Of a stretch of 64,000 bases of DNA, positions 27,298 through 43,234 are shown one piece after another (positions within the stretch are counted from its first letter, which is position 1; every line of letters begins with the position of its first letter). The translations under genes and the position numbers were made by a program. The stretch lies in assembly GCA_001775055.1 (NCBI GenBank), contig MFBU01000022.1:3278-67277 (forward strand). Direction: 5' to 3'. The DNA is from Candidatus Curtissbacteria bacterium RIFCSPLOWO2_02_41_11 (lineage in GTDB: Bacteria; Patescibacteriota; Microgenomatia; Curtissbacterales; GWA2-41-24). Below the pieces are notes generated by a model. The model was given only the letters and a program-made list of their open reading frames with translations. It did not search any database and was not told the origin of the DNA.

Positions 27298-27741
27298 TTA
27301 CGAACGGGCTACAATAAAAATACCAAAAAGCATCACTACTATACCAACTATTCTTATAAAAGAAACATCCTCATTTAAAAATTTTATAGAACCAATGGTA
27401 GTAAACATAAAAACTATCGTTGCAAAAATTGGATAAGCCCGTGAGAGGTCATTAAATGTTAATACACGAAGCCAAATTAAAAAAGAAAGGCCATAAAGGC
27501 CAAGTCCTGCCAGGATAAATGGATTTGCCGCAGCTTTCGATATTTCAAGAAAAAGTTTTGTCAAGTTTCCACTCAAACCACCAAATGATAAAACCCCTTT
27601 TTTAAGAAGAATATTTGCCGTCACATTAAAAGTAACGCTTGTCAGTAAAAGAGCGTAAAAGTTTTGGAAAAAACTCATGGTGTGATCATACCATTGACAG
27701 CTGACAACTGACAACTGACCCTTCGATGGACTCAGGGTCAT
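27298..27741 (-). CDS. SMR/EamA-like 4-TM membrane protein (ArnE/ArnF-like lipid-linked sugar flippase subunit candidate). The start is uncertain (Met at 27741 or internal Met at ~27678).
   Basis: The core is about 125 aa with 4 hydrophobic helices. It lies immediately upstream of the DPM1-like GT2. The first 21 codons of the track ORF run through a GC-rich heptamer-repeat element. Confidence 0.4.
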   Translation of the reverse strand: MTLSPSKGQLSVVSCQWYDHTMSFFQNFYALLLTSVTFNVTANILLKKGVLSFGGLSGNLTKLFLEISKAAANPFILAGLGLYGLSFLIWLRVLTFNDLSRAYPIFATIVFMFTTIGSIKFLNEDVSFIRIVGIVVMLFGIFIVARS

Positions 27742-27780
27742 CCTGAGCTTGTCGAATGGATGACAACTGACATTTGCTGA
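27695..27780. repeat. GC-rich element with heptamer tandem repeats (CTGACAA-type x4) flanking a unique ~40-nt core. A shortened copy lies inside the CDS at 32255-32287.
   Basis: The sequence 'ttgacagctgacaactgacaactgaccc ... atgacaactgacatttg' is seen directly. The nearly identical 'ttgacaactgacaactgaccactgacatttg' occurs at 32255-32287. Confidence 0.5.
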
Positions 27781-27819
27781 ATCATTTTGATATTTGAAAT
27801 TTAATATTTGATATTGGCT

Positions 27820-28911: not shown

Positions 28912-28998
28912 TTTTCTACATTCGTATGATTAGTATGAATTCGTATATTTGTATCGATGCTAATCTACTAATGGATGCTACTGATACGAATTTTAATC
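28912..28998 (-). promoter_or_regulatory. Intergenic region with ATTCGTAT (x2) and ATACGAAT half-sites, related to 12765-12858
   Basis: It shares TTAGTATGAATTCGTATATT, GATGCTAAT and ATACGAATT words with the 12765-12858 spacer. It lies upstream of the PIG-V-like gene start at 28911. Confidence 0.35.
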
Positions 28999-30033: not shown

Positions 30034-30057
30034 AATGATTTAATTATATCAACAAAC

Positions 30058-30118
30058 CAAAAAAACCCACCTTCCGTTGACTTAATAGGATATTCCTTTA
30101 TCAAACCGTTAAGGTGGG
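30058..30118 (-). terminator. Rho-independent terminator/attenuator candidate: a stem of CCCACCTT/AAGGTGGG, then a T7 tract on the minus strand
   Basis: On the minus strand the sequence reads cccacctt-(loop ~37 nt with inner GGA/TCC pairing)-aaggtggg followed by TTTTTTTGGTTTGTT. It lies 140 nt downstream of the 30259 stop and 25 nt upstream of the 30033 start. Confidence 0.45.
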
Positions 30119-30142
30119 CAGACTTTGCAAAGTCTTAAAAAC

Positions 30143-30172
30143 TTATCTCTTCTTCTTTCGTTTCTTTGCCAT
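30143..30172 (-). other. Mini-ORF of 9 codons (MAKKRKKKR) with a canonical Shine-Dalgarno sequence (AAAGGAGGT, 8-nt spacer)
   Basis: The minus strand reads ggaaaggaggtagagatct ATG GCA AAG AAA CGA AAG AAG AAG AGA TAA. It is followed by the palindrome GACTTTGCAAAGTC and then the terminator hairpin. Confidence 0.25.
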
Positions 30173-30258
30173 AGATCTCTACCTCCTTTCCAAAACTTGA
30201 GTATATAACTAAAATTGTTAGCAAGTTTTAAATATTTATGCAATAGGGCAAAATGATG

Positions 30259-31023
30259 CTAGCGGCGTTCCCAATATTTGACATACGCGTAGAAGTGGTG
30301 TGCCGCCGAAAATAAAGCCCAGACAAACCCCCTAAAACCATCAACATAACCCCGATGTCTAACAAAAATATCGAAAAAAGTGACAAGTGGCTTTAGAACC
30401 ATGTAGTAAAAAACCGGCCAAGGCCCCCTACCCGGATCTATCTCTCTAAGCTTTTGAGCAGTTTGATCTGTATAACGGTCGGCTCGATAAAGGTATCTGG
30501 CAAATGAGGGATCGGCCATGTGAAGAATGTCGTTTTTTAGATACCCTACTTCCCCATCAATTGCAACCTGTTCATGAACACTAACTTCGGGAAGCCTGCC
30601 TTTGCCTCGTCTAAAAAGCCTAATCACACTATCAGGATAAGCTCCGCCCTTTGTTAAATAACCGCCTAAAAACCAATTGCGACGATTGATCCAAAAACCG
30701 TTCTCTTTGGGGTTTTTAGAGATAATTCCTTTGATCTCACCGACTAATTCTTTACTGACCCTTTCATCGGCATCCATTAGAAAAATCCAGTCGCTAGTGC
30801 AATTATCTATAGCTAAATTTTTATTAATGTGAAACATTGGTTTATTAGTTGTTTTAATAATTTTTGCACCCAGATTCTCTGCCAGTTCTCTGGTTCTGTC
30901 TGTTGATGACCCGTCAGCTACCACTATCTCATCGGCAAAATTTTTTAAAGACTCGATACAATCAACAATATTTTCCTCCTCATTAAATGTTGCCAGTGCA
31001 GCTGAAATTTTTATCTTTTTCAT
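30259..31023 (-). CDS. GT2-family glycosyltransferase (WaaE/KdtX-like subfamily); paralog of 51411-52172 and 56118-57023
   Basis: The motif 'ISAALATFNEEENIVDCIESLKNFADEIVVADGSSTDRT...MDADER' is present. The shared C-terminal 'GG.YPD...RLFRRGKG' motif links the three paralogs. Confidence 0.65.
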   Translation of the reverse strand: MKKIKISAALATFNEEENIVDCIESLKNFADEIVVADGSSTDRTRELAENLGAKIIKTTNKPMFHINKNLAIDNCTSDWIFLMDADERVSKELVGEIKGIISKNPKENGFWINRRNWFLGGYLTKGGAYPDSVIRLFRRGKGRLPEVSVHEQVAIDGEVGYLKNDILHMADPSFARYLYRADRYTDQTAQKLREIDPGRGPWPVFYYMVLKPLVTFFDIFVRHRGYVDGFRGFVWALFSAAHHFYAYVKYWERR

Positions 31024-32621
31024 TTTGGATGACCTATTTTAATCGCTTCTTTTCCGTTAGGATAATAAATTGTTTCAATGACTTCAAAGCCGCCGGGGAA
31101 ATTTCCGCTATCGGCAATAAAAAGCTCACTGGGAGTTGTCGGCGGTTTGGTGTCGAAGTAATATTTGTCAAAGTTTTGCCTCGTACCGCTTTGTTGATAA
31201 CTCCTGGGGTCATACTTAGTATTAAAAAGCCAGAACACGTACGCCTGTTCGATTGAATGATCGACATTAATTTTAGTGTATTGATTTTTGATTTTCTCGG
31301 ATTCTAGAACAGCTTCCTTATATCCATACTGCCAAAAATCTGCCTTGTCGTATGGATAATGTCTCCAGTAGTTATGAAGGTAAACTATGATTGATACACC
31401 AATCCATAAGATATAAAAATATTGAACAGGTTTTTTAAGTAAAAACTCCATAGAAAAAATTGAAACCAGCGCATAGGCACTAATGATCTGAAGCGCTGGG
31501 TCCATCGGTAGAGACCGGTTACCATGCGGATTAGGAACAGCCGGTGTTGCAGGAATTGGGGCAATCAGAAGCCATGCAAGAAGAAAGGCTGAAGTTTTAT
31601 TGCGATTTCTAACAAGCAAAAAGATACCATATAAAACTAGAGGAAATTGAAAAAGATAGACCATCCCTATATTTCCAATATGATGCCTGAAATTATCATC
31701 GCCTTTAGTGAAAAGAAAATTAAAATCAAAATGAGAAAGATAATTGCCAAACCATGTTTGGCCAATAACAAATCTTCTGTTATGAATATATTTGCCGAGC
31801 TTCGATCCCCTTTCCTGATCTTCTAGAATAAATTTTATTGATTTTTCGATATCCTCAAGTCTTGGTCTGCCAGTGGTAACTTCAAATCTTTGTAAGATTA
31901 CTTTTGGCGGTATTAATATTACAAGCGGCAGTCCGATTAGAATAGTAATGATGATAAAAATACCTAGATACCTTTTAGAAACGGTAAGTATCTCTTTTCT
32001 CCAAATAAAAAATGTTGCTATAAAAAGTAGCGGTACAAAAATCCGCTCTGAATGATAGGTATAAGTAGAAATCCCTAAAAATATGCCGCTTACTATTAAC
32101 CATCTTCTACTGGCTAACCCATATAAAAATGCAGTAATGGCTGCGACTGCAAAAAAAAGGCCAACCGTAGCCTCAAAACCGACTCGAGAAAATTGCAAGT
32201 GCCAAGGCGAAATGGCCAACATTAGCATAGATAGAAGAGCGATTGACTCACTCTTGACAACTGACAACTGACCACTGACATTTGACTTTTCAAAGATTTT
32301 TCTGGCTAAAAAATACATTGCTGGAACTGTCAAAAAACCAAAAAATGCGGAAGGAAGTCTTGCGGCAAATGGGGTTAGACCAAAAATTGCCACTGTCACT
32401 ACATTCAAATACATGTATAGAGGGGGTTTATAATCATCAAAGGAGCGATTGGTAATCGGCAAAAAGTTGCCGTATTCATCCCGTCCAGTTTTAAGAATCG
32501 AGTAGGCATTGTAAGCATTACTGTTTTCATCCCAATCCAAACTTAGTGGAATTTCTCCTAATTTATAAAATCTCAAAATAAAAGCCAAAACTAAAATCGC
32601 CCAAAAGATTTTTTTTGTCAT
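31020..32621 (-). CDS. ArnT/PMT-like GT-C glycosyltransferase, tandem paralog 1 of 5
   Basis: There are about 12 TM helices. The segment 'LDWDENSNAYNAYSILKTGRDEYGNFLPI' is the loop-1 DE motif. 'ISPWHLQFSRVGFEA' is conserved across the paralogs. The C-terminal soluble domain is about 120 aa. Confidence 0.65.
   Translation of the reverse strand: MTKKIFWAILVLAFILRFYKLGEIPLSLDWDENSNAYNAYSILKTGRDEYGNFLPITNRSFDDYKPPLYMYLNVVTVAIFGLTPFAARLPSAFFGFLTVPAMYFLARKIFEKSNVSGQLSVVKSESIALLSMLMLAISPWHLQFSRVGFEATVGLFFAVAAITAFLYGLASRRWLIVSGIFLGISTYTYHSERIFVPLLFIATFFIWRKEILTVSKRYLGIFIIITILIGLPLVILIPPKVILQRFEVTTGRPRLEDIEKSIKFILEDQERGSKLGKYIHNRRFVIGQTWFGNYLSHFDFNFLFTKGDDNFRHHIGNIGMVYLFQFPLVLYGIFLLVRNRNKTSAFLLAWLLIAPIPATPAVPNPHGNRSLPMDPALQIISAYALVSIFSMEFLLKKPVQYFYILWIGVSIIVYLHNYWRHYPYDKADFWQYGYKEAVLESEKIKNQYTKINVDHSIEQAYVFWLFNTKYDPRSYQQSGTRQNFDKYYFDTKPPTTPSELFIADSGNFPGGFEVIETIYYPNGKEAIKIGHPK
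32255..32287. repeat. In-frame heptamer tandem repeat (CTGACAA-type x4-5) inside ArnT-like paralog 1, encoding SGQLSVVK
   Basis: 'ttgacaactgacaactgaccactgacatttg' is seen directly. It is related to 27695-27780 and 59217-59236. Confidence 0.5.
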
Positions 32622-34399
32622 GGTAATTTGACCTGACTGACATCATAGATTTCAAAAATTGTGTCGCCTCGCAAATCATCTATAGTGTAGATTGGCGGTT
32701 TAGGAAACTCGATTTCTTTTTCCCCCGCAACAATTAACGTTTTTGTCGGTAGACGATCGATCCCTGGTACTGAGTCGACAAAATCGTATTTTCCGATGCT
32801 ATCAAGTATTACCCAACCGTCCTGGGATTTATGTCTTTGGGCATTTTGAATAAAGTAAGCCGGGTTAACCTTTGCAAAATAGAGATACTGCATATATTGA
32901 TGACCATAGTCAATTTTTCTTGAAATGACAATCTTGTCGTATTCCTGTTCTTTTGAGGCAAGATAGTTAAAAAGCTCCTTGTACCCGAATCTTTGAAAAC
33001 GGCTGGTAAAATATGGCTCACTGTAAAACATATCAGGTATCAACTTAACTACTGATCCTAAAATAGTGATAGTCAATACGATAATAAAAATATTTTTAAA
33101 GAATTTTGACTTTAATGAAGCTACAAAAGTATAAATGCCAAAGGCAACAATGATCTCAAGCGATGGCATAATCAGATTAATTCTTCCATAATTACCAGAT
33201 CCGGCAAAGGAAGCGCCTATTGGCACAAAAAGCAGCCAAGGTATTAATATTTTTAGTGCTTGATTTTTTTGCTTTATAAGTAAAAATATCCCCAAAATTA
33301 AAAATGGTAACTCAAACAAGTAAACTACACTTCTGGTGCTAAATGACTGGAAACCAGATGGATTTGCTTTATCAAAATAAGTCTTAAAAGATAAATTCCC
33401 AGCATAATTGCTAATATAAGTTGAAGCAAAAGTTAAAAATTTATTGTAGGTTAATGTACAAAAAATATTTGGCAGATGTTCTTTACAAACACCGCGCCTC
33501 TCATTTATATCAGCATTGATTCCAGCTCGAGCCACCCCGGAAATAAAACTCTCCTGAAGAAATCTCGACTGACCCTTAAAGGTTAGTACTGTAGGCAGGA
33601 GAGGTAAAAACAATATAAAGGCCAAAATCAAATTCTTGGCTAAATATACTTTTGGTATTTTAAACTGCTGTCTAAACGAGTAGATCACTACTGATATAAA
33701 CAGTGGCAAAAAAACCCAAGCAGATCGATAAACATAAAAAGAAATAACAAAACCTAAAAAAGAAAAGGTAATAAATTTTTTATTTTTTAAACCTACTAAG
33801 AAAAAGTAAGTTGAGATGGTTATAAAGAAAACTAATAAATCAGACTCAAAAGCATTTCTTGATGCCGCTATATGCCAGGGTGAAATTGCCAGAAGAAATG
33901 CAGCTACGAGGGCTATGACTTCGTTGCGGGTCCTGTCAGTCGTTTCCTTCCCGCCAGTGCTCGCTTTGTGCAAGTTCGTTATTTTACTTTGATTCCATAT
34001 AGAAGCTCCGCGCTGTCGGGAACCTTCCCACAACTGCCACCCGCTCCTGTCTTCGAATAGTTTTTTCGTCAATAAATAAGTAGCAAAGACTGCAAAAACT
34101 CCAAACAAGGCTGATGGGAATCGCGTTGCAAATTCATTCATACCGAAGAAAAATTGAGATATAGCTGTGAGGTAAAGATAGACTACAAGCTTCCAGTCAC
34201 CAAAACTTTCGAAAGCAGGAAAGGGTAAAAACCTGCCCCACTCATCCATGCCGGTTTTTAAAATCGAATAGGCATTATAGCCAAAAGCAGCTTCGTCATC
34301 GTTAAATCCAACTGGAATACTTGCCAGATTTATAAAACGAAGAAGAATTGCTACTGTAATTATCGAAATTATGATTAAATTATTTTTGAGATACTTCAT
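32618..34399 (-). CDS. ArnT/PMT-like GT-C glycosyltransferase, tandem paralog 2 of 5 (carries a 45-aa GC-rich insert)
   Basis: The motifs 'GFNDDEAAFGYNAYSILKTGMDEWGRFLP' and 'ISPWHIAASRNAFES' are present. An insert 'RSGWQLWEGSRQRGASIWNQSKITNLHKASTGGKETTDRTRNE' lies between the conserved blocks. Confidence 0.65.
   Translation of the reverse strand: MKYLKNNLIIISIITVAILLRFINLASIPVGFNDDEAAFGYNAYSILKTGMDEWGRFLPFPAFESFGDWKLVVYLYLTAISQFFFGMNEFATRFPSALFGVFAVFATYLLTKKLFEDRSGWQLWEGSRQRGASIWNQSKITNLHKASTGGKETTDRTRNEVIALVAAFLLAISPWHIAASRNAFESDLLVFFITISTYFFLVGLKNKKFITFSFLGFVISFYVYRSAWVFLPLFISVVIYSFRQQFKIPKVYLAKNLILAFILFLPLLPTVLTFKGQSRFLQESFISGVARAGINADINERRGVCKEHLPNIFCTLTYNKFLTFASTYISNYAGNLSFKTYFDKANPSGFQSFSTRSVVYLFELPFLILGIFLLIKQKNQALKILIPWLLFVPIGASFAGSGNYGRINLIMPSLEIIVAFGIYTFVASLKSKFFKNIFIIVLTITILGSVVKLIPDMFYSEPYFTSRFQRFGYKELFNYLASKEQEYDKIVISRKIDYGHQYMQYLYFAKVNPAYFIQNAQRHKSQDGWVILDSIGKYDFVDSVPGIDRLPTKTLIVAGEKEIEFPKPPIYTIDDLRGDTIFEIYDVSQVKLP
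33905..34060. repeat. GC-rich ~150-nt island embedded in-frame in an AT-rich CDS (insert of paralog 2)
   Basis: There is a local composition shift (e.g. 'gcgggtcctgtcagtcgtttccttcccgccagtgctcgc', 'gctccgcgctgtcgggaaccttcccacaactgccacccgctcc'). The flanking sequence is otherwise AT-rich. Confidence 0.4.
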
Positions 34400-34401
34400 T
34401 A

Positions 34402-35910
34402 TTAAGGAACTACTTCATAAAACCGCATAAAACTATTACCTCTACCCTTTTGGTATTTGCCAATTAATTTAAGACGAGGGTTACCCGGGTCATCAGGAAG
34501 GTTTTGGTTTTCGTTAAAGACAAAAAAAGTCTTTTTAACTTTGGCAGCTTCCAAAACCTGCTGTGGAATATCCCTAACTGGCCAGAATCCGGTAATCTGG
34601 ATATTTGGATTACTATAAAAGTAAATTTGAATAGCAAAAGGTAAAAGCCCAAAGGTGCCTTCAGTTCCAACATAGACTGGTTGGCTTTTTGTTTCATGTT
34701 TTAGGATTGCCACAATTTCCTCCACACCATAACCGGCCGGCCAGTCATTTAAGTATTGACCAAGATCTGCATCGGCAATATTGGCCTTTGGAGGTTCTGT
34801 TAGTAATCTATATGAATTGATAGCCGGAAAAACAAAAATGATCGCAAAAATCACCCACAAATATTTCAAGTAATTTTTCCACCTAATTAAATTTATTACA
34901 CCAAAAGATACTAGGATAACTATATAAGGGAAATAAAAAAGCATAAAACGAGGATATAAAACTTTATTAAAAATACTCTCTGCCAGAAACGGCGCCAAAG
35001 CATAAACCGAAAGCAAAATAATTACCCCCTTTCGCCTAATTAAACCCCATGTAATAACCAAAACGGCAATAATTGTCAGCGGCCAGCCATTATATTGAAC
35101 AAACCATGAAATTAAGGCATGAAGATTGCTGGGCAATTGAATAAATGGGTTATTTATAATTTCGTTAAAAGATCTGATAAATTCAGATTCTTTACGCTCA
35201 ATCATATAAAACAGTGGCGAGAGTCTTAAACTATTGTAAATTACCTGTGAGAGCAAAAAAGTAACAACTGAAAAGATAACCCATTTAAATAATCTAAAAC
35301 TGTAATCTCTACTCTTGAAATTAAAAACCAATAGAGAAAAAGGGAGTAGATACAAAAAAAGGATGCCTGAAGATTTAGTAATCATTGTTAGTCCAATAGC
35401 AAAACTGGCAAGCATGGCAGTTTCAAATCTTGGATCTTTGGCCATCTTTATCGAAAAGTAAACTGCCCAAATACCCAACATGGTAAGCAGAGAATCAAAA
35501 AGGGCCATTCGGTCATACAGGAGCGTGAAGGGTAAAATGACATATAAAAAGGCCGCAAGTTTGGCCACTTTCTCAGAAAATAACAGTCTGGCTAAGAAAT
35601 AGATTCCTACCAGAGAACCAAACCCTGCAAAAACAGAAACGAGTCTTCCGGCTATTAACGGATCAGGGATAAATTGCTGAAAAATTGCTGCAATCCAAAT
35701 GAATAAAGGCTGCTTTCCATCCTCCAGAGAAATAAATCTGTTAGCAGGATCATGGAGTGCTACTTGTGCCCAATAAGTATAAATTGCCTCATCAGTAAAT
35801 ATTGGAACTATTTTTAAATTGATAAGTCTTGTAGCAAAATAAAGTACACTAAAGCTAGACCAAAGGATCAAAGATTGCAGTTGGATTAAAACTACGGGTT
35901 TAGGCTTCAT
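34402..35910 (-). CDS. ArnT-like GT-C glycosyltransferase (PMT_2-type, GT39/GT83-like)
   Basis: The motif 'FTDEAIYTYWAQV' follows TM1, and the protein has about 13 TM helices. It is distinct from the five-paralog family and is inserted between paralogs 2 and 3. Confidence 0.5.
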   Translation of the reverse strand: MKPKPVVLIQLQSLILWSSFSVLYFATRLINLKIVPIFTDEAIYTYWAQVALHDPANRFISLEDGKQPLFIWIAAIFQQFIPDPLIAGRLVSVFAGFGSLVGIYFLARLLFSEKVAKLAAFLYVILPFTLLYDRMALFDSLLTMLGIWAVYFSIKMAKDPRFETAMLASFAIGLTMITKSSGILFLYLLPFSLLVFNFKSRDYSFRLFKWVIFSVVTFLLSQVIYNSLRLSPLFYMIERKESEFIRSFNEIINNPFIQLPSNLHALISWFVQYNGWPLTIIAVLVITWGLIRRKGVIILLSVYALAPFLAESIFNKVLYPRFMLFYFPYIVILVSFGVINLIRWKNYLKYLWVIFAIIFVFPAINSYRLLTEPPKANIADADLGQYLNDWPAGYGVEEIVAILKHETKSQPVYVGTEGTFGLLPFAIQIYFYSNPNIQITGFWPVRDIPQQVLEAAKVKKTFFVFNENQNLPDDPGNPRLKLIGKYQKGRGNSFMRFYEVVP

Positions 35911-37622
35911 CTAATCTCTAATTCTCCGACATCGAATACACTAGTTCCGTCAAGCCTTGAGATTGTCTTAAGTTTTTGAACCGAAGGTGGGAGCGCATTG
36001 GGTGAAGTAACATACAACACCTTACCGGAAACCGAAGTTTCATTTAAACTGTCTGTGAAGCGTAATTTACCAAAACCGTCAACGTCTATAAAAAAGAATT
36101 TGTCTCTTGTAATTTGAGCGCTTTTCCAATACTCCCGAGGATCAAATTGCATATATAATAAAAAGTAAATGTAAGGTCTTCCTTGAGCTTTAGTCACTAC
36201 CACATAATCAACGTCATTGTATCTTGGTTTAATAAATTCTACCGCTTCTTTGTATCCAAACTGCCACTCTCCTGAATAATTTCTCGGCCAGTGAACATAA
36301 TACATATGCAGATAAAATAAAAAGTTAAAAGTAAAAAGTAAAAAGTAAAAAATTATAAAAAGTTTTTTATATCTAATTACTCGATAAAGATAAAATAAGC
36401 CAAAAGCGGCAAGTATTTGAAAAGTAGGCAAGATATGAATCATCCTGAGCGCATGGGGAGTTTCTCGGGCAGTTGCCGGTCCAAACGGTGAAATAAGAAG
36501 CCAACCAATAATTAAAAAGCGATATTTTTGTTTGGTAGCAAATAAAAAGTAGATACCAGCAAGAATAAATAGTAGATCAACATAATAAAGTTCGCCTACT
36601 TCCTGAACAGAAAGCCTTGGATTAACATCGCCTTTTGTAAAAAGGAACCTCGGATTGAATGAATCAAAATAATGGGTGAGATATTCATATGAATAGAATA
36701 GACGCCGGTTATGAATAATGTCTGACCACCAAGAAAAATTGTCTCTTGCGCGATACCGAATTGAGTCATTAATCGGTTGCAGATCTTTAAAAATAGTTAC
36801 TTCATCAAATCTCAGTCTGCCTTCAATAGTTTGGGTTGTAAAAATAAAAAGAGGCCAAAATAAAATACTAGTAATTAAGGCTGTTATTAAAACAATTTTG
36901 ATTTGGGCAAAAACCTGTTTTCGAAATTGAATCGCTAGTACTAAAAGAATAAAAGGGACAAACAAGCGTTGGCCTGTAAAAGTATACATCCCGGCAAGAA
37001 ACGAAAGAACAGACGGCAAAATCCATAATGGATTATCTTGAGCAAATTTCAGAAACAGCCAAATACCAAGAACTGAGAAAAAAAGACCCAGATTTGCTTC
37101 AAACGCGCCTCTTGAAAATTGAAGATGCCAAGGGGAAATAGCCAGGAAAAAGGCGGATAGTAAAGCAATTGTTTCAGAAGTACTAAAGGTACGAGAAGTA
37201 CCAGAAGTACGAGAGGTTAAGTTCAGAGATTGCTTTTCGTACCTTTCATACTTTTCGTACTTGTGATACTTTTCTACAAAGAGTTTTTTGGCCAGAAAAT
37301 ATGTCAATAAAACTGTCAAAACACCAAAAAAAGCAGATGGAAATCTAATTGTAAATTCAGTTAGGCCAAAGGCGGCAATTGAAGGCACTGTCGCATAGAT
37401 ATAGCCTGGTGGTTTGTAATCACCGAATGCTGCAAAGTTGGTAATTGGTAAAAATTTACCGTGTTCATCATGACCAGTTTTTAAAATTGAGTAGGCATTA
37501 TAACCAAGTGATGCCTCGTCCCAATAAAGAGAAGGTGGAACAGATCCGAGTTTATAAAACCTTAATACTGCCGCAATGAAAATAATAACGATAAGTATAT
37601 ATTTACTTAATTTTTTGGGCAT
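35907..37622 (-). CDS. ArnT/PMT-like GT-C glycosyltransferase, tandem paralog 3 of 5 (carries a repeat-hairpin insert)
   Basis: The motifs 'LYWDEASLGYNAYSILKTGHDEHGKFLPI' and 'ISPWHLQFSRGAFEA' are present. An insert 'KYHKYEKYERYEKQSLNLTSRTSGTSRTFSTSE' lies between the conserved blocks. Confidence 0.65.
   Translation of the reverse strand: MPKKLSKYILIVIIFIAAVLRFYKLGSVPPSLYWDEASLGYNAYSILKTGHDEHGKFLPITNFAAFGDYKPPGYIYATVPSIAAFGLTEFTIRFPSAFFGVLTVLLTYFLAKKLFVEKYHKYEKYERYEKQSLNLTSRTSGTSRTFSTSETIALLSAFFLAISPWHLQFSRGAFEANLGLFFSVLGIWLFLKFAQDNPLWILPSVLSFLAGMYTFTGQRLFVPFILLVLAIQFRKQVFAQIKIVLITALITSILFWPLFIFTTQTIEGRLRFDEVTIFKDLQPINDSIRYRARDNFSWWSDIIHNRRLFYSYEYLTHYFDSFNPRFLFTKGDVNPRLSVQEVGELYYVDLLFILAGIYFLFATKQKYRFLIIGWLLISPFGPATARETPHALRMIHILPTFQILAAFGLFYLYRVIRYKKLFIIFYFLLFTFNFLFYLHMYYVHWPRNYSGEWQFGYKEAVEFIKPRYNDVDYVVVTKAQGRPYIYFLLYMQFDPREYWKSAQITRDKFFFIDVDGFGKLRFTDSLNETSVSGKVLYVTSPNALPPSVQKLKTISRLDGTSVFDVGELEIR
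37176..37274. repeat. Inverted pair of 9-nt tandem repeats (GTACGAGAA-type arms) forming a ~100-nt imperfect hairpin, in-frame within paralog 3
   Basis: The left arm is 'ggtacgagaagtaccagaagtacgagag'. The right arm, 'cttttcgtacctttcatacttttcgtacttgtgatacttttc', is its approximate reverse complement. Confidence 0.5.
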
Positions 37623-37658
37623 GTTTATAAAAATTTATAATTAATCATAACAAATTTG

Positions 37659-38234
37659 CTAATTAAAAAAGATCTCATTACAAATTGAATTCATCTGCCA
37701 ACCGAAAATAAAATACCAGAAAGACATAATTACCAAGAGGATAAATACTATTTTAGCTAATTTTGTTTTTAGAAAAAGATCAATTCCCCAGAGAGAAAAG
37801 CTATACCAGGATATTACCAGAAGAAAAAAAGAGGCTTTTGAACTTAGAGTAAAAATTGCAATAAATGATGCGATTAAAATCAATATAAAATGGAATTTTG
37901 CTAAATACTTTCTTTTTTTAAAAACTTCTAAAAAGGCAGTTACTACTAGAATTAAGCCTACTGGACCTAAAAACTCCCCTAAGAATCTTGGCTGAAAAGT
38001 TGAAGCGAAAGATTTAGATAACTCAAAAATACCAACAGTTACCTTATTGTGAAACAACCTAGAAATATTCCTATCAACTCCCAAATCAGTATTGACATTA
38101 GTTTCAACACTAACTTTTATAGAAAGAGGGTTAAAGTAAAAACTTAAAAACTTTTTGCACCCAGTAGTTTGCCAACCTCTAAATGAAAAAAGAGAGAATA
38201 AAACGATAATAAAAAGAATCTTAATTTTGTCCAT
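37659..38234 (-). CDS. Small hydrophobic protein (191 aa); possible remnant or accessory subunit between ArnT-like paralogs
   Basis: An N-terminal signal-like helix is followed by a ~70-aa hydrophilic stretch and 3 TM helices. No recognisable motif was found. Confidence 0.25.
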   Translation of the reverse strand: MDKIKILFIIVLFSLFSFRGWQTTGCKKFLSFYFNPLSIKVSVETNVNTDLGVDRNISRLFHNKVTVGIFELSKSFASTFQPRFLGEFLGPVGLILVVTAFLEVFKKRKYLAKFHFILILIASFIAIFTLSSKASFFLLVISWYSFSLWGIDLFLKTKLAKIVFILLVIMSFWYFIFGWQMNSICNEIFFN

Positions 38235-39855
38235 TTACCTCCCAGAGGGTGTAAATATGTCTGCCGACTGAATCATCAACGGCAGCCAAAAAATTACCGT
38301 CTACTTTTTTCCATGAGGGAGCAACATAAAGAATTCTTCCCTGCCAGCCGGCAGGCAGGGCTTTATCGTAGATATTGACATCATCTGAAATAAAGACATA
38401 TTTATCGAAAGCATCTCTAGTACCGCCTGAATTTATAAATTTCTGCGGGTCATATTTTTGATAAAAAAGCAGATAGATATACGGTACCTGATTAATGTTG
38501 GTAACATAAACTTTATTAAATTGGTCTTGATATTTTTGCACTTGAGCAACCATTGCTTTGTAACCGTCTTGCCAGTCAGCTGCAAATTTTTTGGGATAGT
38601 GGATCAAAAGTAAATGCAAATAAGTTAAAAATGAATAGCCAATAATCACTATCATTATTATTTTTACTAGCAGCAATTTTTTTTGAGAAAAAATTAAATA
38701 GGCTCCAAATCCCGAAAAGAATGCTAAGGGAATCGCTATCTGGAGAGTTCTGTATGCATGAGGCGAAGGAGTAACAATGATTGCTGGAATGGGCGCTAAA
38801 ATTAACCAAGAAAACATTATTTTTTTTGTTTGCGCATTTAACTTTTTAAAAGCGATAATTGAAACTATCAATAAAATTCCTTCAAATAAATAAATTTGAC
38901 CCATATCGACCTGTGAGTGCCTCCCTATCTGATCACCTTTAAAAAACAAGAAGCTAGGAGAAAAATGATCAATGTAGGTATTAAATGCCAAATAGCTAAA
39001 ATAGAAAGGCCAGTACCAGTACTTTGACAAAAACCTAAGAGGCTTTTTAGACTTCTGATCATAATCAATACGGTTTGTTTCAAATCCGGCATAACTGAAC
39101 GCCGATTGAGAAATTGCTCTAGAGCGACCCTCTTTCGAAATTGTAAAAATTATGATCGGAAAAATTAGTATCAATGCTAAAAGTGCTGGCAATATCAATT
39201 TCGCGGCTATCTTTTTGACAACTTCCAGATAAATTAAAAGAAGTGAAATCACAAATAGAGGTGTAAAAATTCGATAAGCGTGGTAAAAATACATAGATAA
39301 AGTGAAAAGTCCCGCCGTCGCTAAAGCTATGGCGGGCAAGAAAAAGGCAGACCGAGGCTTCGTCTTTCGATCATCGATTAGAAACAAGAAAAAATAAACG
39401 GCAGAAGTTACGAAGAAAAGACCTACGGTTGATTCAAAACCAGCTCTGGAAAACTGTATATGCCAAGGTGAAATTGCCAGAAAAAAAGTACAAAATAGAG
39501 AAAGCCTAATATTTTTAGTCAATTTTTTAACAATAAAGAAAAAGACAATTATGGTCAAAGACCCAAAGAAGGCACTCGGGAAACGAACGGCAAATTCATT
39601 AAGGCCAAAAACAGCAATAGATAGAACTAGAAGATAGTGATAACCTGGCAATTTCCAATCACCGAAACTTTCAAAAAATAACGGCAAAGTAACGCCATGA
39701 TGATCCTTCCCTGTTTTAAGAATTGAATAGGCATCATAACCAAATACGGCTTCATCCCAATAAAGTCCTGGAGGATTGATACCCAATTTATAAAACCTCA
39801 AAATAAAAGCAGTAAATATGATTAAAATTAATAGAGTTATTTGGAATCTCTTCAT
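38221..39855 (-). CDS. ArnT/PMT-like GT-C glycosyltransferase, tandem paralog 4 of 5
   Basis: The motifs 'LYWDEAVFGYDAYSILKTGKDHHGVTLPL' and 'ISPWHIQFSRAGFES' are present, with no large insert. Confidence 0.65.
   Translation of the reverse strand: MKRFQITLLILIIFTAFILRFYKLGINPPGLYWDEAVFGYDAYSILKTGKDHHGVTLPLFFESFGDWKLPGYHYLLVLSIAVFGLNEFAVRFPSAFFGSLTIIVFFFIVKKLTKNIRLSLFCTFFLAISPWHIQFSRAGFESTVGLFFVTSAVYFFLFLIDDRKTKPRSAFFLPAIALATAGLFTLSMYFYHAYRIFTPLFVISLLLIYLEVVKKIAAKLILPALLALILIFPIIIFTISKEGRSRAISQSAFSYAGFETNRIDYDQKSKKPLRFLSKYWYWPFYFSYLAFNTYIDHFSPSFLFFKGDQIGRHSQVDMGQIYLFEGILLIVSIIAFKKLNAQTKKIMFSWLILAPIPAIIVTPSPHAYRTLQIAIPLAFFSGFGAYLIFSQKKLLLVKIIMIVIIGYSFLTYLHLLLIHYPKKFAADWQDGYKAMVAQVQKYQDQFNKVYVTNINQVPYIYLLFYQKYDPQKFINSGGTRDAFDKYVFISDDVNIYDKALPAGWQGRILYVAPSWKKVDGNFLAAVDDSVGRHIYTLWEVNGQN
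39311..39337. repeat. 27-nt GC-rich palindromic motif (CCCGCC-N15-GGCGGG) that is 24/27 identical to 59233-59259 in an unrelated gene
   Basis: 'cccgccgtcgctaaagctatggcgggc' here compares with 'cccgccttcgctaaagcttcggcgggc' at 59233. Both are in-frame and encode PA(I/E)AL(A)(T/K)AG. Confidence 0.5.
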
Positions 39856-39873
39856 TGATGACGCTATTAATTA

Positions 39874-41496
39874 TTAACTACTAACTATATATATCGCCGG
39901 TTCACCGTTAAGATAATAAACGATTTTCAAAATCTTGATATTTGATGGGAATTCTGAAGGTAAACCGACAAATAAAGTTTTAGCCTCTTTTTGTTGTTTA
40001 TCAAAATCAATTGGTTTAAAGAAATATTTGTCGAATTTGTTTTTATCCTCCAAATATCCTCCAGAAACTGTACCGCCTTCAGTAAGATATTTTTGAGGAT
40101 CATACTTGAGGTAATACAGCCAAAATTCGTGTGATTGATCTATTTTAGTTGAAACAATAATTCTATCATAATTATTTTTAACACTTTCACTAAATAATGC
40201 AGCCTCCCTGCGCCCATAAAGCCAGCTCTTGGAGTACTCAATTGGCATATGGACATAATACTGGTGAAGGTAAAAAGCAAAATTTATAAAAAGAGCAGTC
40301 GCAGTTAAAATCAAATACAATCTTTTAAATCTGACATATTTATAAAATATGTAGACTCCAATTGCCGTAAATATTTGGTAAGTTGGCAGATAAATTTCAC
40401 TACGAAGCGCATGCGGTACACCCCAAGTTACCGAAGAGGCAACTGGCGCAATTAAAAACCACCAAAAAATAATTATTTTTGGCTTAGTTTCAAATTTTTT
40501 TCTAATTAAAAAATAGACACCGGCCAAAACAAAGGGTAAATCCCAAAGATAAAGAAGTCCAATCTGTGGGGCATGGTGTCTATCCATGTCGGCAGTAAAA
40601 AATAAATAAGTTGGTTTGAGATGAGAAAGATAGTTTTCGACAAGTATGGGAATATAGACAAAACGGCGGTTGTGAAGAATTCGGCCAACTGTTAACTGAC
40701 CTGATTGCTCATCTTGGGCTATTAACTGCGATGCCTTATATTGCGGTGAAAGATCGGCAAATATCGTAGTTCCTTTATAACGGAGCTGGCCTGAAATTGA
40801 GAAAATGATAGGAATAAGAACTGCTGAAAAAATAATGGCGATTATGGCCGGAACGACTAAGTATTTTTTATTTTTAAGAAGCCAGTCTTTAGAAATAAAT
40901 AAAAGTATAATAGAAAAAATAGGAATAAAAACCCGGGCATTGTGATACATAAAAAGATTAACACCAAAAGCGATAGCTGTAAGAGACATCCAAGCAGTAA
41001 TTCTCAGTCCCTTAGCTCTAATTCCCTTTAAAAAAGCCCAAGTGCCTAAAACAGACCAAAAAATTGCACTATTTGTTTCAAAAGCTACTCTTGAAAATTG
41101 GAGATGCCAAGGAGAGATGGCTAAAAATAATGAAGACAAAAAGGCAATAGTTCTATTTTTGAATAATTCAAAGACCATAAAATAAGTGAAGATAACAGTC
41201 AAAACTCCAAGTGCCGCTGAAGGAAATCTGACAGCAAAGTCATTTAAGCCGAAAGCAGCAATCGAAGGAACAACTAAATATGTGTAAATTGGAGGTTTGT
41301 AATCGTCAAACGATCTAAAAGAAAGTGGCAGTCTATATCCATACTCATCTCTACCTGTTTTTAAAATTGAATAGGCATTATAACCGTGAGCGGTTTCGTC
41401 CCAATTAAGACTCGGAGGATTTTGGCCGAGTTGATAAAATCTAAGGACTGTTGCCAAGATAATAATGAAAATCAAACTGAGATTATTTTTTAACAT
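39874..41496 (-). CDS. ArnT/PMT-like GT-C glycosyltransferase, tandem paralog 5 of 5
   Basis: The motifs 'LNWDETAHGYNAYSILKTGRDEYGYRLPL' and 'ISPWHLQFSRVAFET' are present. Confidence 0.65.
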   Translation of the reverse strand: MLKNNLSLIFIIILATVLRFYQLGQNPPSLNWDETAHGYNAYSILKTGRDEYGYRLPLSFRSFDDYKPPIYTYLVVPSIAAFGLNDFAVRFPSAALGVLTVIFTYFMVFELFKNRTIAFLSSLFLAISPWHLQFSRVAFETNSAIFWSVLGTWAFLKGIRAKGLRITAWMSLTAIAFGVNLFMYHNARVFIPIFSIILLFISKDWLLKNKKYLVVPAIIAIIFSAVLIPIIFSISGQLRYKGTTIFADLSPQYKASQLIAQDEQSGQLTVGRILHNRRFVYIPILVENYLSHLKPTYLFFTADMDRHHAPQIGLLYLWDLPFVLAGVYFLIRKKFETKPKIIIFWWFLIAPVASSVTWGVPHALRSEIYLPTYQIFTAIGVYIFYKYVRFKRLYLILTATALFINFAFYLHQYYVHMPIEYSKSWLYGRREAALFSESVKNNYDRIIVSTKIDQSHEFWLYYLKYDPQKYLTEGGTVSGGYLEDKNKFDKYFFKPIDFDKQQKEAKTLFVGLPSEFPSNIKILKIVYYLNGEPAIYIVSS

Positions 41497-43234
41497 TTGT
41501 TACAATGACTCCAATTGCTAAAAATAACGACCCCAAAGACAAATAATCAGCAAAAAGCCTAAGTGGTGTTTCGCCAAAATTTGCATTAACTTGATGTTTA
41601 CCTTTTGCCAGATTGATAAGCATTAGTCCGGAGGCGTCCTGCTCTTTTTCTAAATGAAGACTCGATGGGTTAGTAATTGTCAAATCATTAAATGCAAACA
41701 GCAGGTTTTTATTATCCCTTACTGAAACTCCCGGAAAATAAAACTTATTGATCCTGATTTGAACATTTTGTGTAAAAACTTCTGCATCAAAAGAGACCCT
41801 GTTTGTTTTAGTCAAAACGTTATAAATATCAGCTTCACCTGATATCCGCTCCACTGTTTTGCCTAAAACAAAACCAATCGGCACCCTGGTTGATTGACGC
41901 CATTCGGGAGTAAATTCGTCATACTGGGTTGCCGTACCTGTATAACTGGAAAAGAACTGATCATCGCGAATTAATATCTGGTTGATGCGTAAGTGATTCC
42001 GATTGGCAACTAAAACAAAAATTATAAGAAAAAGAAAAATTAACCCAGGCTTTATTGTTTTTGCAACAAAAGCAGTTAGAAAAGAAAGTGAAAGTATTGT
42101 TACACCCAGAAATCTCCAAGGAATATCAATTAGTTTAAGAAGGTGAATATGCTGCCAAATAAATAAGGATGGTTTTGTTTGAATCATCAAAGAGATAGTT
42201 ATAAGAAAAATAATAATGAAGAAAAAAGTTAAAATTAGAGGTAGTTGACTAATCTCATCTAAAACAATTTTGCCAATCTTCTCAAAAGGCATAAATTTCT
42301 TTAATACAAAATAGATTATCAAGAAGAGGACTAATGCGAAAATTAAAAGGTGGGCAAGTCCGATCTGAAAAGACATCTGATCATTAACAGTTCCGGGCAA
42401 ATCAAATCCGTAGCCCCACGGCGATCTGATTAGTTGTTTTAAAGTCACAAAATGATTCTCATAGGCCACTTTGATAATTTCATCGAGACGTACAAAATTG
42501 CGCTCAAATATTGAAGGGAGATAAGTGATGGCGGCAATTGCCAGTCCCCACAAACTGGAAATAACGCTATAAATAAAGTATTTTAGGGATTTAAAGTAAA
42601 TCGTTTGAATCAGTATGTAGAAACCTATAACCGGCAGGGTGATCATTGCGACCAAATTTTGCGACAAAAATAAAAGCGCTATGGATAGAGCACAAAGGGC
42701 AACCCATTTAAGATTATTTTTCTGGGCTAGTTTTGTGTATGAGTAAAAAACTAATGGCAAAAAAGTGTAGGCTAAAAGCTCTGAAATTGAGGCACGGACG
42801 TAGATAAGTGAAAATCGATAAGGAGCCCAGACATAAAATAGAGCACCCAAAAATGCAGCCTTTTCGCTTTTGAAAACTTCTTTTAACCACAAATAGGAAA
42901 AAATGGCCGAGAAAATAAATCCTAGGGCCATTAAAATTTCAAAAGAATCGGTAAAGGAAAAACTCAATAAATGAACTAGTGACCCTAAAAAGTAAGGCAA
43001 GGGATAGATATAAACAAAAATCGGACTACCTAATCCATTATAAAATGAACCGGCGAAGCGAGGCGGCAGTTGACCATCGGCGAGGGCCTGGTAATATTGG
43101 GCAATTCTGGCGGTATGGGTCTCGCCATCATGACTGGTATAAAATCCGCCTATTGCCAGACTTTTAAGCGCGGGAATTGAAAGTACCAGAAGTGCAACGA
43201 TTGCCAAAAAGTTGGGATTATACCAAAACTTCAC
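41483..43234 (-). CDS. Large polytopic membrane protein, GT-C-like (YfhO/PTPS-related membrane protein class); family-mate of 58468-60330
   Basis: The motif 'GGFYTSHDGETHTARIAQY' follows TM1. There are about 13 TM helices and a ~180-aa C-terminal extracytoplasmic domain. Confidence 0.4.
   Translation of the reverse strand: MKFWYNPNFLAIVALLVLSIPALKSLAIGGFYTSHDGETHTARIAQYYQALADGQLPPRFAGSFYNGLGSPIFVYIYPLPYFLGSLVHLLSFSFTDSFEILMALGFIFSAIFSYLWLKEVFKSEKAAFLGALFYVWAPYRFSLIYVRASISELLAYTFLPLVFYSYTKLAQKNNLKWVALCALSIALLFLSQNLVAMITLPVIGFYILIQTIYFKSLKYFIYSVISSLWGLAIAAITYLPSIFERNFVRLDEIIKVAYENHFVTLKQLIRSPWGYGFDLPGTVNDQMSFQIGLAHLLIFALVLFLIIYFVLKKFMPFEKIGKIVLDEISQLPLILTFFFIIIFLITISLMIQTKPSLFIWQHIHLLKLIDIPWRFLGVTILSLSFLTAFVAKTIKPGLIFLFLIIFVLVANRNHLRINQILIRDDQFFSSYTGTATQYDEFTPEWRQSTRVPIGFVLGKTVERISGEADIYNVLTKTNRVSFDAEVFTQNVQIRINKFYFPGVSVRDNKNLLFAFNDLTITNPSSLHLEKEQDASGLMLINLAKGKHQVNANFGETPLRLFADYLSLGSLFLAIGVIVTNVKK

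Follow-up and report, generated by a model that had tools for sequence, protein, structure and literature searches.

A hairpin of inverted 9-nt tandem arrays lies in frame within paralog 3, a gene for a membrane glycosyltransferase, in a 64-kb stretch of DNA that was analyzed as a whole (hereafter, the window). With moderate confidence, we favor a local origin, in which repeats expanded a permissive loop, over the import of a mobile element. Structural selection and mobility like that of Rickettsia palindromic elements (RPEs) are minority possibilities. On the favored reading, the hairpin would be a clear example of slippage and inverted duplication writing a new peptide into a membrane enzyme.

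Host gene and its predicted product

Paralog 3 is one gene of a tandem array of GT-C glycosyltransferase paralogs. The host, Candidatus Curtissbacteria, is an uncultivated groundwater bacterium. The Pfam search of the protein gave PF02366 and PF13231 above the cut-off, with the PMT_2 match broken between residues 117 and 148, and in a protein comparison the product was 100% identical to a Candidatus Curtissbacteria protein. The sequence search of the PDB with the GT-C family profile returned no match, and a fold search was used in its place: the AlphaFold model (pTM 0.77) was matched by Foldseek to STT3, PglB, ArnT, and Pmt4 structures. The acidic motif of the first external loop, W-D-E (residues 34-36), was invariant in the paralog and ortholog alignments. 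Judged by the Pfam matches, the W-D-E motif, and the modeled fold, paralog 3 is a GT-C glycosyltransferase (PMT / ArnT-like). The coordinates of all features are collected in Table 1.

Table 1. Positions of the hairpin, its host gene, and related features in the window
Feature	Position	Strand	Source
Host gene, paralog 3; 571-aa protein matching GT-C fold glycosyltransferases (PMT / PMT_2, ArnT-like)	35907..37622	minus	ORF
Entire in-frame insertion, codons 116-150, VEKYHKYEKYERYEKQSLNLTSRTSGTSRTFSTSE	37173..37277	minus	Paralog and ortholog alignments
5' arm (mRNA sense), array of GAAAAGTAY units, 18-nt super-unit, encodes EKYHKYEKYERYEK	37233..37274	minus	TRF, direct-repeat family D1
Spacer/loop separating the arms, encodes roughly QSLNLT	37215..37232	minus	Repeat search, MFE structure
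3' arm (mRNA sense), array of TCTCGTACT units, 18-nt super-unit, encodes TSRTSGTSRTFSTS	37176..37214	minus	TRF, inverted pairs I1-I5
Exchanged-allele patch, 23/24 base differences from L067	37131..37425	.	blastn, position-by-position comparison over 21.6 kb
Paralog 1 insert (ORF 31020-32621), heptamer tandem array GTCAGTT	32254..32286	minus	
Paralog 2 insert (ORF 32618-34399), GC-rich (0.53) 'GWQ...TTDRTR', closing stem CGGGT/ACCCG	33920..34054	minus	

Structure of the insert

Tandem Repeats Finder (TRF) reported a period of 9 in both arms, with 4.3 copies and 76% matches in the 3' arm and 4.7 copies in the 5' arm. A period of 18 gave the better matches (85% and 87%, respectively), so the repeat is really one of 18 nt. 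The 3' arm is an approximate reverse complement of the 5' arm (inverted pairs I1-I5), and the inverted-repeat search delimited arms at 37171-37207 and 37233-37269, each 37 nt long, 76% complementary, and 25 nt apart. A preliminary description had placed inverted 9-nt arrays with approximately reverse-complementary arms at 37176-37274, in frame within paralog 3; the sequence was found as quoted, and this anatomy stands, with the refinement of the period. Each arm is a run of tandem 9-mers, which can pair with the other arm in more than one register, and no defined termini are marked. The insert is in frame with the minus-strand ORF and is read through without stops. Its GC content is 0.371, compared with 0.354 for the host gene and 0.345 for the window.

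In the protein, the insert is located between two membrane helices, and pLDDT is below 50 at residues 119-125 and 132-146. The low pLDDT and the absence of the insert from most orthologs indicate a low-complexity segment that the fold does not need. The loop that joins the second full membrane span to the third, probably on the cytoplasmic side, is thus lengthened by about 35 residues, which are hydrophilic, of low complexity, and probably disordered.

Folding and codon-preserving controls

The RNA minimum free energy (MFE) of 131 nt spanning the hairpin was -27.4 kcal/mol (z -2.77 against dinucleotide shuffles). Codon-preserving controls were run on the 105-nt insert with 1000 sequences each. 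When codons were shuffled across the insert, 2/1000 sequences folded equally well (z -3.56), and none of the 1000 reached the ungapped inverted-repeat score of 14 (mean of the shuffles, 6.6). Shuffling inside each arm gave 8/1000 by MFE and 2/1000 by inverted-repeat score. Synonymous-codon resampling, in which the peptide was kept, gave z -3.60 and 0/1000 on both measures. Both the folding and the codon-preserving control had been proposed in the preliminary description, and the hairpin was equaled by only 0-8 of 1000 control sequences. The claim that this is not ordinary coding sequence is thereby upheld, as synonymous resampling abolishes the hairpin and, in an 83% ortholog (see below), the repeat cores are kept while the peptide is barely conserved. 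For the same two reasons, the peptide derives from the DNA repeat and not the reverse.

Synonymous codon choice that specifically favors pairing could mean that the nucleic-acid structure itself is selected. The GUAC-core hairpin would then act in the mRNA (as a pause after a membrane helix, a site for a nuclease or RNA-binding protein, or in stability) or in the DNA, as a GTAC protein-binding array. The hairpin is the densest GTAC cluster of the window (6/86 sites), but GTAC is not unusual genome-wide (86 sites observed vs 102 expected in the window, observed/expected 0.84). As single-stranded DNA, the same hairpin folds weakly (-11.8 kcal/mol, z -1.4). No covariance-model match was obtained with Rfam 15 over window positions 31000-41500 at E up to 1; on three related loci (L017, L002, and L001), Rfam gave a single weak match, which was unrelated. 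Two further roles were considered and rejected: a terminator or promoter, since prediction gave neither signal, and avoidance or enrichment of GTAC as a restriction site, since its frequency in the window is not unusual.

Relatives and population variants

The insert is missing from the neighboring paralogs at 38221-39855 and 39874-41496, as well as from 93 of the best-scoring 120 relatives in the alignment. The ortholog comparison proposed in the preliminary description had a mixed outcome: the 83% ortholog (L001) has a homologous hairpin at the same site, but a ~70% ortholog (P0014/L068) is one-armed and contig L067 is insert-free.

The insert has diverged between the window and L001 by 40% (42/105 positions), compared with 17.3% (276/1599) in the remaining gene. 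Nevertheless, the L001 hairpin keeps the GTAY cores every 9 nt and the arm complementarity. At the GTAY/RTAC cores, 5/32 positions differ, whereas 37/73 differ elsewhere in the insert, and the cores are thus three-fold more conserved than the spacers. At three stem pairs, both partners have been replaced (two G-C pairs by C-G, one A-U pair by G-C), a covariation statistic that is thin because both arms occur in only two independent sequences. In simulations of random mutation, only 3-4% of the trials reached the observed stability (p about 0.03-0.04), although pairing is easily kept when tandem arms permit many registers. Taken together, the retention at 40% divergence, the simulations, the paired changes, and the core conservation suggest, from sequence comparison, some constraint on the structure or the cores. 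Such retention is not expected of neutral decay; arm-to-arm correction by template switching would produce it.

The P0014/L068 ortholog has no 5' arm and carries only a direct 9-nt array, CGTGGTACC CGTGATACT CTTGATGCC AGTGACACC, whose homolog in the 83% ortholog is the 3' arm. Within the 90% cluster, copy number varies: P0136 has lost 6 aa (18 nt), all from the 5' arm, and the P0131 allele is free of the insert. As determined by blastn and position-by-position comparison, contig L067 matches the window at 99.9% identity across 21.6 kb and lacks the hairpin insert; 36 nt stand there in place of the 132 nt bearing the hairpin. Outside the exchanged patch (Table 1), the difference amounts to one SNP at 28778 and a run of N. 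Because the substitutions are, with that one exception, confined to the patch, the alleles were exchanged by recombination. A diversity-generating retroelement was rejected as the source of the 300-bp patch, the 20 substitutions listed having no adenine-specific pattern. Several sources have the paralog 3 protein sequence on record, and a cluster member seen on 43 contigs carries an identical copy of the insert. The insert is therefore not an assembly artefact, which these independent samples and the variants rule out. The relatives form a partial evolutionary series that includes an empty site, a single array, a pair of inverted arrays, and a variant in which one arm is shortened. Even if neutral, the locus is a useful natural marker for strain-level variation.

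For selection on the structure, these comparisons count in both directions. The retained stability with its paired changes, the conserved cores, and the identical insert on 43 contigs are in its favor, but the insert is dispensed with by the 99.9%-identical strain and by most of the aligned relatives, and the arm-reduced variants P0136 and P0014 exist. Furthermore, no structure is shared by the other inserts at the site. We regard such selection as unlikely.

Selection could instead act on the protein, with the Tyr-every-third and Thr/Ser-every-third segments forming a functional loop that offers, for example, phosphorylation sites, a degron, or a docking site. The Tyr and Thr positions are shared by the window and L001, and Borg proteins, glycosyltransferases included, have repeat-derived disordered regions with proposed functions (PMC9879509). 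All other residues vary between the two sequences, however, codon choice is tied to pairing, and the nearest strain and most orthologs manage without the insert. The Tyr/Thr conservation is also explained at the DNA level, as the kept codons coincide exactly with the GTAY/RTAC cores, which are translated in two frames. A protein-level adaptation is accordingly very unlikely in our view.

Insertion hotspot in the paralog family

The preliminary description had also stated that the site is common to inserts of other paralogs, and the paralog alignments bear this out. Insertions at exactly the hairpin site make 64/118 paralog sites longer than the baseline of 32-33 aa; they comprise heptamer arrays, GC-rich hairpins, and the GTAY-9 element. 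Within the family, this site dominates the indels, with 532 inserted residues in 43/95 complete proteins, compared with 147 residues at the next internal site. It contains 22/168 tandem arrays in 1.76% of the DNA, a ~7-fold enrichment (binomial p = 4e-13). All hotspot inserts are in frame and stop-free, and are therefore translated. Their structures have nothing in common, and no folding is seen in the short inserts, those of heptamers included (median z about 0). A hairpin in the paralog 2 insert was rejected as well, since it folds no better than shuffles (z about -1). An exhaustive HMMER search with the peptide of that insert found only a truncated GT-C protein and a coiled-coil protein judged spurious, so the insert is not evidenced in other protein families.

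The dominant period among the tandem repeats of these genomes is 7 (47/168), and the heptamer repeats lie mostly within membrane-protein ORFs. The heptamers of the neighboring paralogs, not divisible by three, sit in frame-keeping blocks. One heptamer array, which has a GC-rich core nested in it, turns up again elsewhere: the GTCAGTT heptamer with its GC core is found both close to the beginning of ORF 27298-27741 and within the paralog 1 ortholog of L002. The GC-rich 'GWQ' insert occurs in 4/5 adjacent paralogs of L017 and is conserved more than its flanks. In the spacer at 28920-28991, there is a second palindrome of 9-nt period, with the core TTCGTA/TACGAA; its arm order is opposite to that of the hairpin, and its fold is not significant (z -0.9).

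Simple repeats in a tandem array of glycosyltransferase paralogs could act as a phase-variation (contingency) switch, turning a surface-glycosylation gene on and off by changes in repeat number. Copy-number variants exist, and copy changes in the heptamer arrays found in many of the inserts at the site would shift the frame. With a unit of 9/18 nt, however, copy changes in the present element keep the frame, and the inferred topology places the loop well away from the catalytic face. No out-of-frame alleles were found at about 118 sites, the six candidates all being false anchors. Such a switch is most improbable here.

Slippage alone does not explain the variety of repeat types at one loop. 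A broader proposal, which we put forward tentatively and hold to be doubtful, is that the loop after the K-K-L-F turn serves as a landing pad for small structured repeat modules that pass from one paralog to another, and from coding to non-coding sites or the reverse, with the frame always kept. The modules would be heptamer arrays with possible nested GC-rich hairpins, the multi-paralog GC-rich 'GWQ' element, and the GTAY-9 hairpin. The loop would then be a Patescibacteria counterpart of the in-frame selfish palindromes of Rickettsia, possibly with selected mRNA structure. The wider pattern is more interesting than the single hairpin: in Microgenomates, one inter-helix loop of a multi-paralog glycosyltransferase family gathers varied in-frame repeats and hairpins, at least one of which is also found outside these genes. 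If the modules were mobile or selected, in-frame selfish DNA, best known from Rickettsia, would extend to the Candidate Phyla Radiation, with a bearing on annotation and on protein novelty in small genomes.

Evidence on mobility

The preliminary description had assigned the hairpin to the miniature inverted-repeat elements (MITEs). This assignment is not supported, given the tandem-array arms, the missing target-site duplication, the lack of a second copy in the DNA scanned, the native base composition, the one-armed ortholog, and the population variant P0136 with 18 nt lost from a single arm. At the flanks, only a trivial GAAA was found on both sides, which is part of native F-E-K/E codons, and the boundaries are blurred by the divergent patch. 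The insert-free allele is a recombined patch and offers no clean empty site. No transposase or related autonomous insertion sequence was seen in the window region examined.

The search for further copies, also suggested there, was negative: a scan of the 64-kb window and 818 kb of related loci for GTAY-every-9 arrays found only the orthologous L001 site. When the alignment of insert regions was used for a protein search, the sole match was a 110-aa fragment of that protein itself. Hence, within the DNA and proteins searched, copies in unrelated genes, as expected of RPEs, were not found. A metagenome scan for two-armed GTAY-9 arrays was uninformative on dispersal: in-phase tandem arrays dominated, since in 375/496 of the matches listed the gap was that of an uninterrupted 9-nt array, other matches were trivially self-complementary Ser/Thr-type repeats (AGT/ACT), and neither the contig of the window nor L001 was among the matches listed. 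A scan of viral contigs with the 5'-arm pattern was saturated by unrelated periodic repeats and likewise uninformative.

A mobile RPE/MITE-like palindrome that inserted in frame, with the hotspot as its preferred target, is nonetheless compatible with several observations. The element is palindromic and hairpin-forming, is read through in frame, lies in a surface loop, and is polymorphic for presence. The heptamer elements with the GC core look dispersed, the 'GWQ' insert recurs in adjacent paralogs, and the 28920-28991 palindrome has the same period, though it differs in arm order and folds poorly. For the hotspot in general, mobility is conceivable, because at least one other repeat family there also occurs outside these genes. 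For the hairpin itself, against the copy search, the flanks, and the composition, we consider it quite unlikely.

Proposed origin by slippage and inverted duplication

Local origin is favored because both arms share the 9/18-nt periodicity, which fits an inverted copy of an array and not transposon ends. It is also favored by the native GC, the one-armed P0014/L068, the copy-number variants P0136 and P0131, and the lack of any further GTAY-9 array in the DNA scanned. The fast divergence of the insert, the alleles swapped by recombination, the enrichment of indels and tandem repeats at the hotspot, the translated inserts, the low pLDDT, and the lack of an Rfam, terminator, or promoter signal point the same way.

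A 9-nt motif beside the K-K-L-F turn after the membrane helix may have been amplified by replication slippage, initially in units of 9 nt and later in units of 18 nt. While the DNA was being replicated, an intramolecular template switch would then have placed an inverted copy of the array a few bases off, resulting in pairable arms. Continued slippage, arm-to-arm correction, and homologous recombination between strains would have reshaped the insert. The inverted copy beside its template and the one-armed P0014 agree with a template switch in the three lineages compared, although P0014 may instead have lost an arm. Extra residues are tolerated in the loop, and a unit length divisible by three keeps the frame, so the insert would simply be translated. 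The mRNA hairpin (about -27 kcal/mol) would be a by-product with no dedicated function, at most slowing the ribosome shortly after synthesis of the membrane helix.

Comparison with known systems

RPEs are selfish palindromic DNA in frame within protein-coding genes, and they form families with conserved sequence and many dispersed copies across unrelated genes (PMC10969869). The hairpin resembles them in its length of about 100 nt, its folding, its in-frame read-through, the fold-compatible position of its peptide, and its presence in some relatives and absence from others. Unlike RPEs, it shows no detectable spread beyond a single locus; its arms are tandem 9-mers, its composition is native, and one relative is one-armed. 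Prokaryotic MITEs are likewise small, of non-coding origin, and with inverted arms, but no target-site duplication, dispersed copies, defined termini, or partner transposase was seen here, and the arms are internally repetitive.

Heptameric repeats are exemplified by the STRR and small dispersed repeats of cyanobacteria. Heptameric short tandem repeats are over-represented in bacteria (PMC4692102), and the neighboring hotspot inserts, being heptamer arrays in genomes where period 7 dominates, are similar. The described repeats are mostly intergenic, whereas those found here are mostly in ORFs, and the hairpin itself has period 9.

In Borgs, in-ORF repeats with units divisible by three create disordered regions (PMC9879509). 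The present element shares with these 'aaTRs' and with VNTR loop expansions a unit divisible by three (periods 9 and 18 in both arms), fast evolution, variability within populations, copy-number variation among close relatives (P0136, P0131, and P0014), and a low-complexity, probably disordered segment in a membrane or surface-related protein. Unlike in those cases, its repeats are imperfect (72-88% matches), the second array is inverted, and its neighbors use heptamers. Template switching is documented to create and maintain hairpins (PMC8794818; PMC10710096), and these have in common with the present one the inverted copy by the putative template, the blockwise apparent compensation, and the one-armed relative. 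The documented cases are rRNA or miRNA hairpins, whereas here the putative switch would have taken place within a translated bacterial ORF and produced arms that are tandem arrays.

Structure of the repeat element

The sequence at 37176–37274 agreed exactly with that quoted in the preliminary description, which had read it as a hairpin inside the ArnT-like paralog 3 gene; the quoted strand is the antisense of this minus-strand ORF (35907–37622, 571 aa). The two tandem arrays found there (see table) are mutually inverted, and the best ungapped pairing of the arms covers 37 nt (76% complementary, arms separated by 25 nt). In gene sense, the 5' arm reads (GAAAAGTAY)n and the 3' arm (TCTCGTACT)n, and both arms with the spacer encode VEKYHKYEKYERYEKQSLNLTSRTSGTSRTFSTSE (residues 116–150).

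Repeat features in the window
Feature	Position	Description	Method
Tandem array 1	37176–37214	period 9, 4.3 copies; period 18 better, 85% matches	Tandem Repeats Finder
Tandem array 2	37233–37274	period 9, 4.7 copies; period 18 better, 87% matches	Tandem Repeats Finder
Composite repeat	27690–27790 (−)	CAAATGTCAGTTGTCA / TCCATTCGAC...GATGACCCTGAGTCCATCGAAGG / GTCAGTTGTCAGTTGTCA; adjoins and overlaps annotated start of ORF 27298–27741	
Palindrome	28920–28991	spacer between ORFs 27820–28911 and 28999–30033, nearly all palindrome with 9-nt period; ATTCGTATG x4, then inverted copy; 36-nt arms, 75% complementary, loop-free	
Heptamer array of paralog 1	32240–32300	without GC-rich core	
T-rich 7/14-nt repeat	36313–36355	membrane helix near residue 420 of paralog 3	
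AT-rich tandem repeat	37627–37666	22-nt x 1.9; short spacer directly upstream of paralog 3	
GC-rich hairpin, then heptamers; 14-nt tandem repeat	59225–59260 / 59542–59579	in frame in membrane protein ORF 58468–60330 (−); CCCGCCGAAGCTTTAGCGAAGGCGGG, then GTCAATT heptamers	

The RNA of 131 nt was predicted to fold with an MFE of −27.4 kcal/mol (z −2.8, dinucleotide shuffles); the fold of the element as single-stranded DNA was weak (z −1.4). Codon-preserving controls, set as the refutation test in the preliminary description, were applied to the 105-nt insert. Codon shuffling gave z −3.56, with an equal fold in 2/1000 and the inverted-repeat score reached in 0/1000; synonymous codons resampled by local codon usage, with the peptide kept, gave z −3.60 (0/1000); and shuffling within arms matched the element in 8/1000 by MFE and 2/1000 by inverted-repeat score. 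The arm complementarity thus exceeds codon-preserving expectation and does not follow from a peptide rich in K/Y/E and S/T/R, whose sequence is instead dictated by the DNA repeat.

Host protein and genomic neighbourhood

The host protein and one from Candidatus Curtissbacteria bacterium RIFCSPHIGHO2_02_39_8 were 100% identical; Candidatus Curtissbacteria belong to the Candidate Phyla Radiation. Pfam matches were to PMT and PMT_2, the insert splitting the latter exactly. The AlphaFold model (pTM 0.77) resembled STT3/PglB, ArnT and Pmt4, so that the label 'ArnT-like' is right at the GT-C fold level. The insert (pLDDT <50) lies between helix 89–115, ending in K-K-L-F, and helix 148–161, leading to the invariant S-P-W-H motif. 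From the positive-inside rule and conserved motifs, we infer that the positive segments (N-terminal KK.K, KKLF, FRKQ, TKQKY, IRYKK) are on one side and W-D-E, SPWH, YTFTGQR, ARETPHALRM and the C-terminal domain on the opposite one; the self-consistent arrangement would have 11 spans and would place the insert in the first loop on the cytoplasmic side. A protein-level function of the insert is very improbable.

Five paralogs in a longer GT-C gene run, the host gene among them, can be closely aligned. Membrane glycosyltransferase genes in a single orientation, interspersed with GT2/GT4 genes, make up this long run (27820–43234), which may be a surface-glycan locus; its members include, besides five alignable PMT-like paralogs, a sixth PMT_2 protein (34402–35910), a PTPS_related/PMT_2 protein (41483–43234) and a 191-aa membrane ORF (37659–38234).

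Orthologs and strain variants

Among the 120 best-scoring relatives, 93 had the baseline spacing of 32–33 residues between R-F-P-S-A and S-P-W-H, and about 23 had an insert at exactly the point of the hairpin, with a variety of unrelated sequences. A homologous element was present in the 83%-identical orthologs P0004, P0005 and P0007; its DNA in locus L001 is made up of a pair of inverted 9-nt arrays, GTACCAARA x4 and CGTGRTACY x4 (MFE −36.9, z −3.3). The two inserts could be aligned column by column, with 42/105 differences (40%) against 276/1599 (17.3%) in the remaining gene. A GTAY/RTAC tetramer was kept each 9 nt: tetramer differences (5/32) affected the outer base every time, and 37/73 other insert positions differed. 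Directly following the core, the window has a G, which pairs with the C of CGTAC, and L001 has a C, which pairs with the G of GGTAC. With pairs taken in the window register, three stem pairs were changed on both sides and four were broken in L001. When either hairpin was mutated at random in simulations until it reached the observed divergence, the observed stability was retained in only 3–4% of trials. Conserved cores and retained pairing could reflect selection on RNA or DNA structure, an explanation that we regard as unlikely. In the ~70% ortholog P0014, a 5' arm was absent, and the single direct 9-nt array present was clearly a homologue of the L001 3' arm.

Within the 90% cluster of the window protein, a member with an identical insert was recorded on 43 contigs; P0136 had only the 5' arm shortened, by six residues (18 nt), P0133 had point changes, and P0131 had no insert. 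The nearest strain (L067), a syntenic contig of the same aquifer data set, was 99.8–99.9% identical to window 25917–47622 across 21.6 kb. Substitutions were clustered at 37283–37425 (20) and 37131–37140 (3), and in the interval L067 had 36 nt in place of 132 nt of the window that include the hairpin; beyond this patch, one SNP and a run of N were found. The L067 version of the patch matches the allele of the more distant orthologs P0003 and P0008, which indicates that presence or absence of the hairpin is swapped as a ~300-bp allele by homologous recombination between strains, not as a clean filled-versus-empty site. A diversity-generating retroelement was rejected as the cause of the patch, since the substitutions had no adenine bias.

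Insertion hotspot and other repeats

The site was located in every GT-C paralog of 65 Curtiss-, Gottesman-, Chisholm- and Collierbacteria loci, all from species-representative genomes. The 118 independent sites comprised 54 of baseline length, 27 with 1–4 additional residues, 27 with 5–16 and 10 with 21 or more. Among 95 complete proteins aligned with MAFFT, 43 carried 532 inserted residues here (147 at the next internal site). Tandem arrays were enriched: 22/168 fell in the hotspot, which makes up 1.76% of the DNA (818 kb; p = 4e-13). Short inserts were mostly heptamer arrays (AGTCATC x5, GCCATCA x4, GTTTTCA, AAACATT, GGAAATT, GCGCAAC; GTCAGTT in window paralog 1), and long ones were GC-rich hairpins (0.47–0.56 GC versus 0.345 in the window). 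All were in frame and stop-free, which indicates that they are translated, and a search for out-of-frame anchors across the GT-C hotspot sites gave false positives only. Phase variation appears extremely unlikely with every insert in frame and no sign of on/off switching.

In the same 818 kb of Microgenomates loci (L001–L068 and the window), period 7 was by far the commonest (47/168 arrays), besides 18 arrays of period 14 and four of period 21. The heptanucleotide arrays were mostly inside ORFs, which is unusual, as heptamer repeats described in bacteria are mainly intergenic. Neither the hotspot nor the abundance of in-ORF heptamers was found described in the searchable literature; both go beyond the single hairpin and are subjects for dedicated study.

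A GTCAGTT array with a GC-rich core (TCCATTCGAC...GACCCTGAGTCCAYCGAAGG) was shared, flanks included, between the start of ORF 27298–27741 and a paralog-1 ortholog, where it forms a hotspot insert with a 114-nt core (L002:3960–4135); the repeat resembles a module that is dispersed or mobile. In locus L017, four of five adjacent paralogs also carried the 'GWQ' insert seen in paralog 2; its sequence was better conserved than that of the flanking genes, and its closing stem was conserved as well. These GC-rich GWQ...RQR...TIDRTR inserts lie at 231, 4185, 6268 and 9581, the 2059 site being empty; the conserved stems are ACGGGT/ACCCGT and CCCGCCAG/CTGGCGGG, two copies have an additional nested GC hairpin, and the gene at 6268 has an apparent frameshift right after ISP of the ISPWH motif. 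Such occupants look more like dispersed repeats than the GTAY-9 hairpin does.

The palindrome at 28920–28991 has the TTCGTA/TACGAA core in common with the hairpin, in opposite arm order, and its fold was not significant over shuffles (z −0.9). ORF 58468–60330 also contains a perfect 14-nt x 2.7 tandem repeat. The T-rich repeat of paralog 3 marks a second recurrent place for such 7/14-nt repeats in these GT-C genes, with counterparts at similar coordinates in L003 (7166), L023 (7141), L031 (7132), L034 (7118), L044 (6637) and L061 (6584).

Origin of the element and comparison with known systems

GTAY-every-9 arrays were absent from the window and 818 kb of related loci beyond the hairpin site in the window and L001. 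Matches in metagenome and viral collections were overwhelmingly unrelated periodic repeats and hence have no bearing on dispersal. No target-site duplication, foreign composition of the insert or Rfam match in the region was found. The element has inverted arms, built from tandem 9-mers that pair in several registers without marking defined termini, and lies in frame; dispersed copies in the loci searched and a duplicated target site, both expected of a miniature inverted-repeat element, were lacking, and mobility of the element is quite improbable.

We favour, with slightly better than even confidence, a local origin in a permissive loop. Slippage would have amplified a 9-mer and then an 18-mer, an intramolecular template switch would have produced the inverted copy of the array, and slippage, arm-to-arm correction and inter-strain recombination would go on reshaping it; the expansion would be tolerated because a frame-preserving unit was added to a permissive loop. 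This origin would account for the tandem arms with common 18-nt periodicity, native composition, the one-armed relative, the arm-specific deletion variant, very fast divergence with an unconserved peptide, and confinement to a single locus. Its main uncertainty is the conserved cores and retained pairing. Documented products of template switching include hairpins and apparently compensatory changes in blocks (PMC8794818), so that this process could also explain the retained complementarity without selection.

The element belonged to none of the curated families tested. Like Rickettsia palindromic elements, it is palindromic and in frame; the dispersal and target duplication that define MITE or palindromic-element families were lacking in the loci searched. 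It resembles Rickettsia palindromic elements in effect (PMC10969869), and its origin recalls a combination of disorder-creating tandem repeats within ORFs (PMC9879509) with template-switch hairpins.
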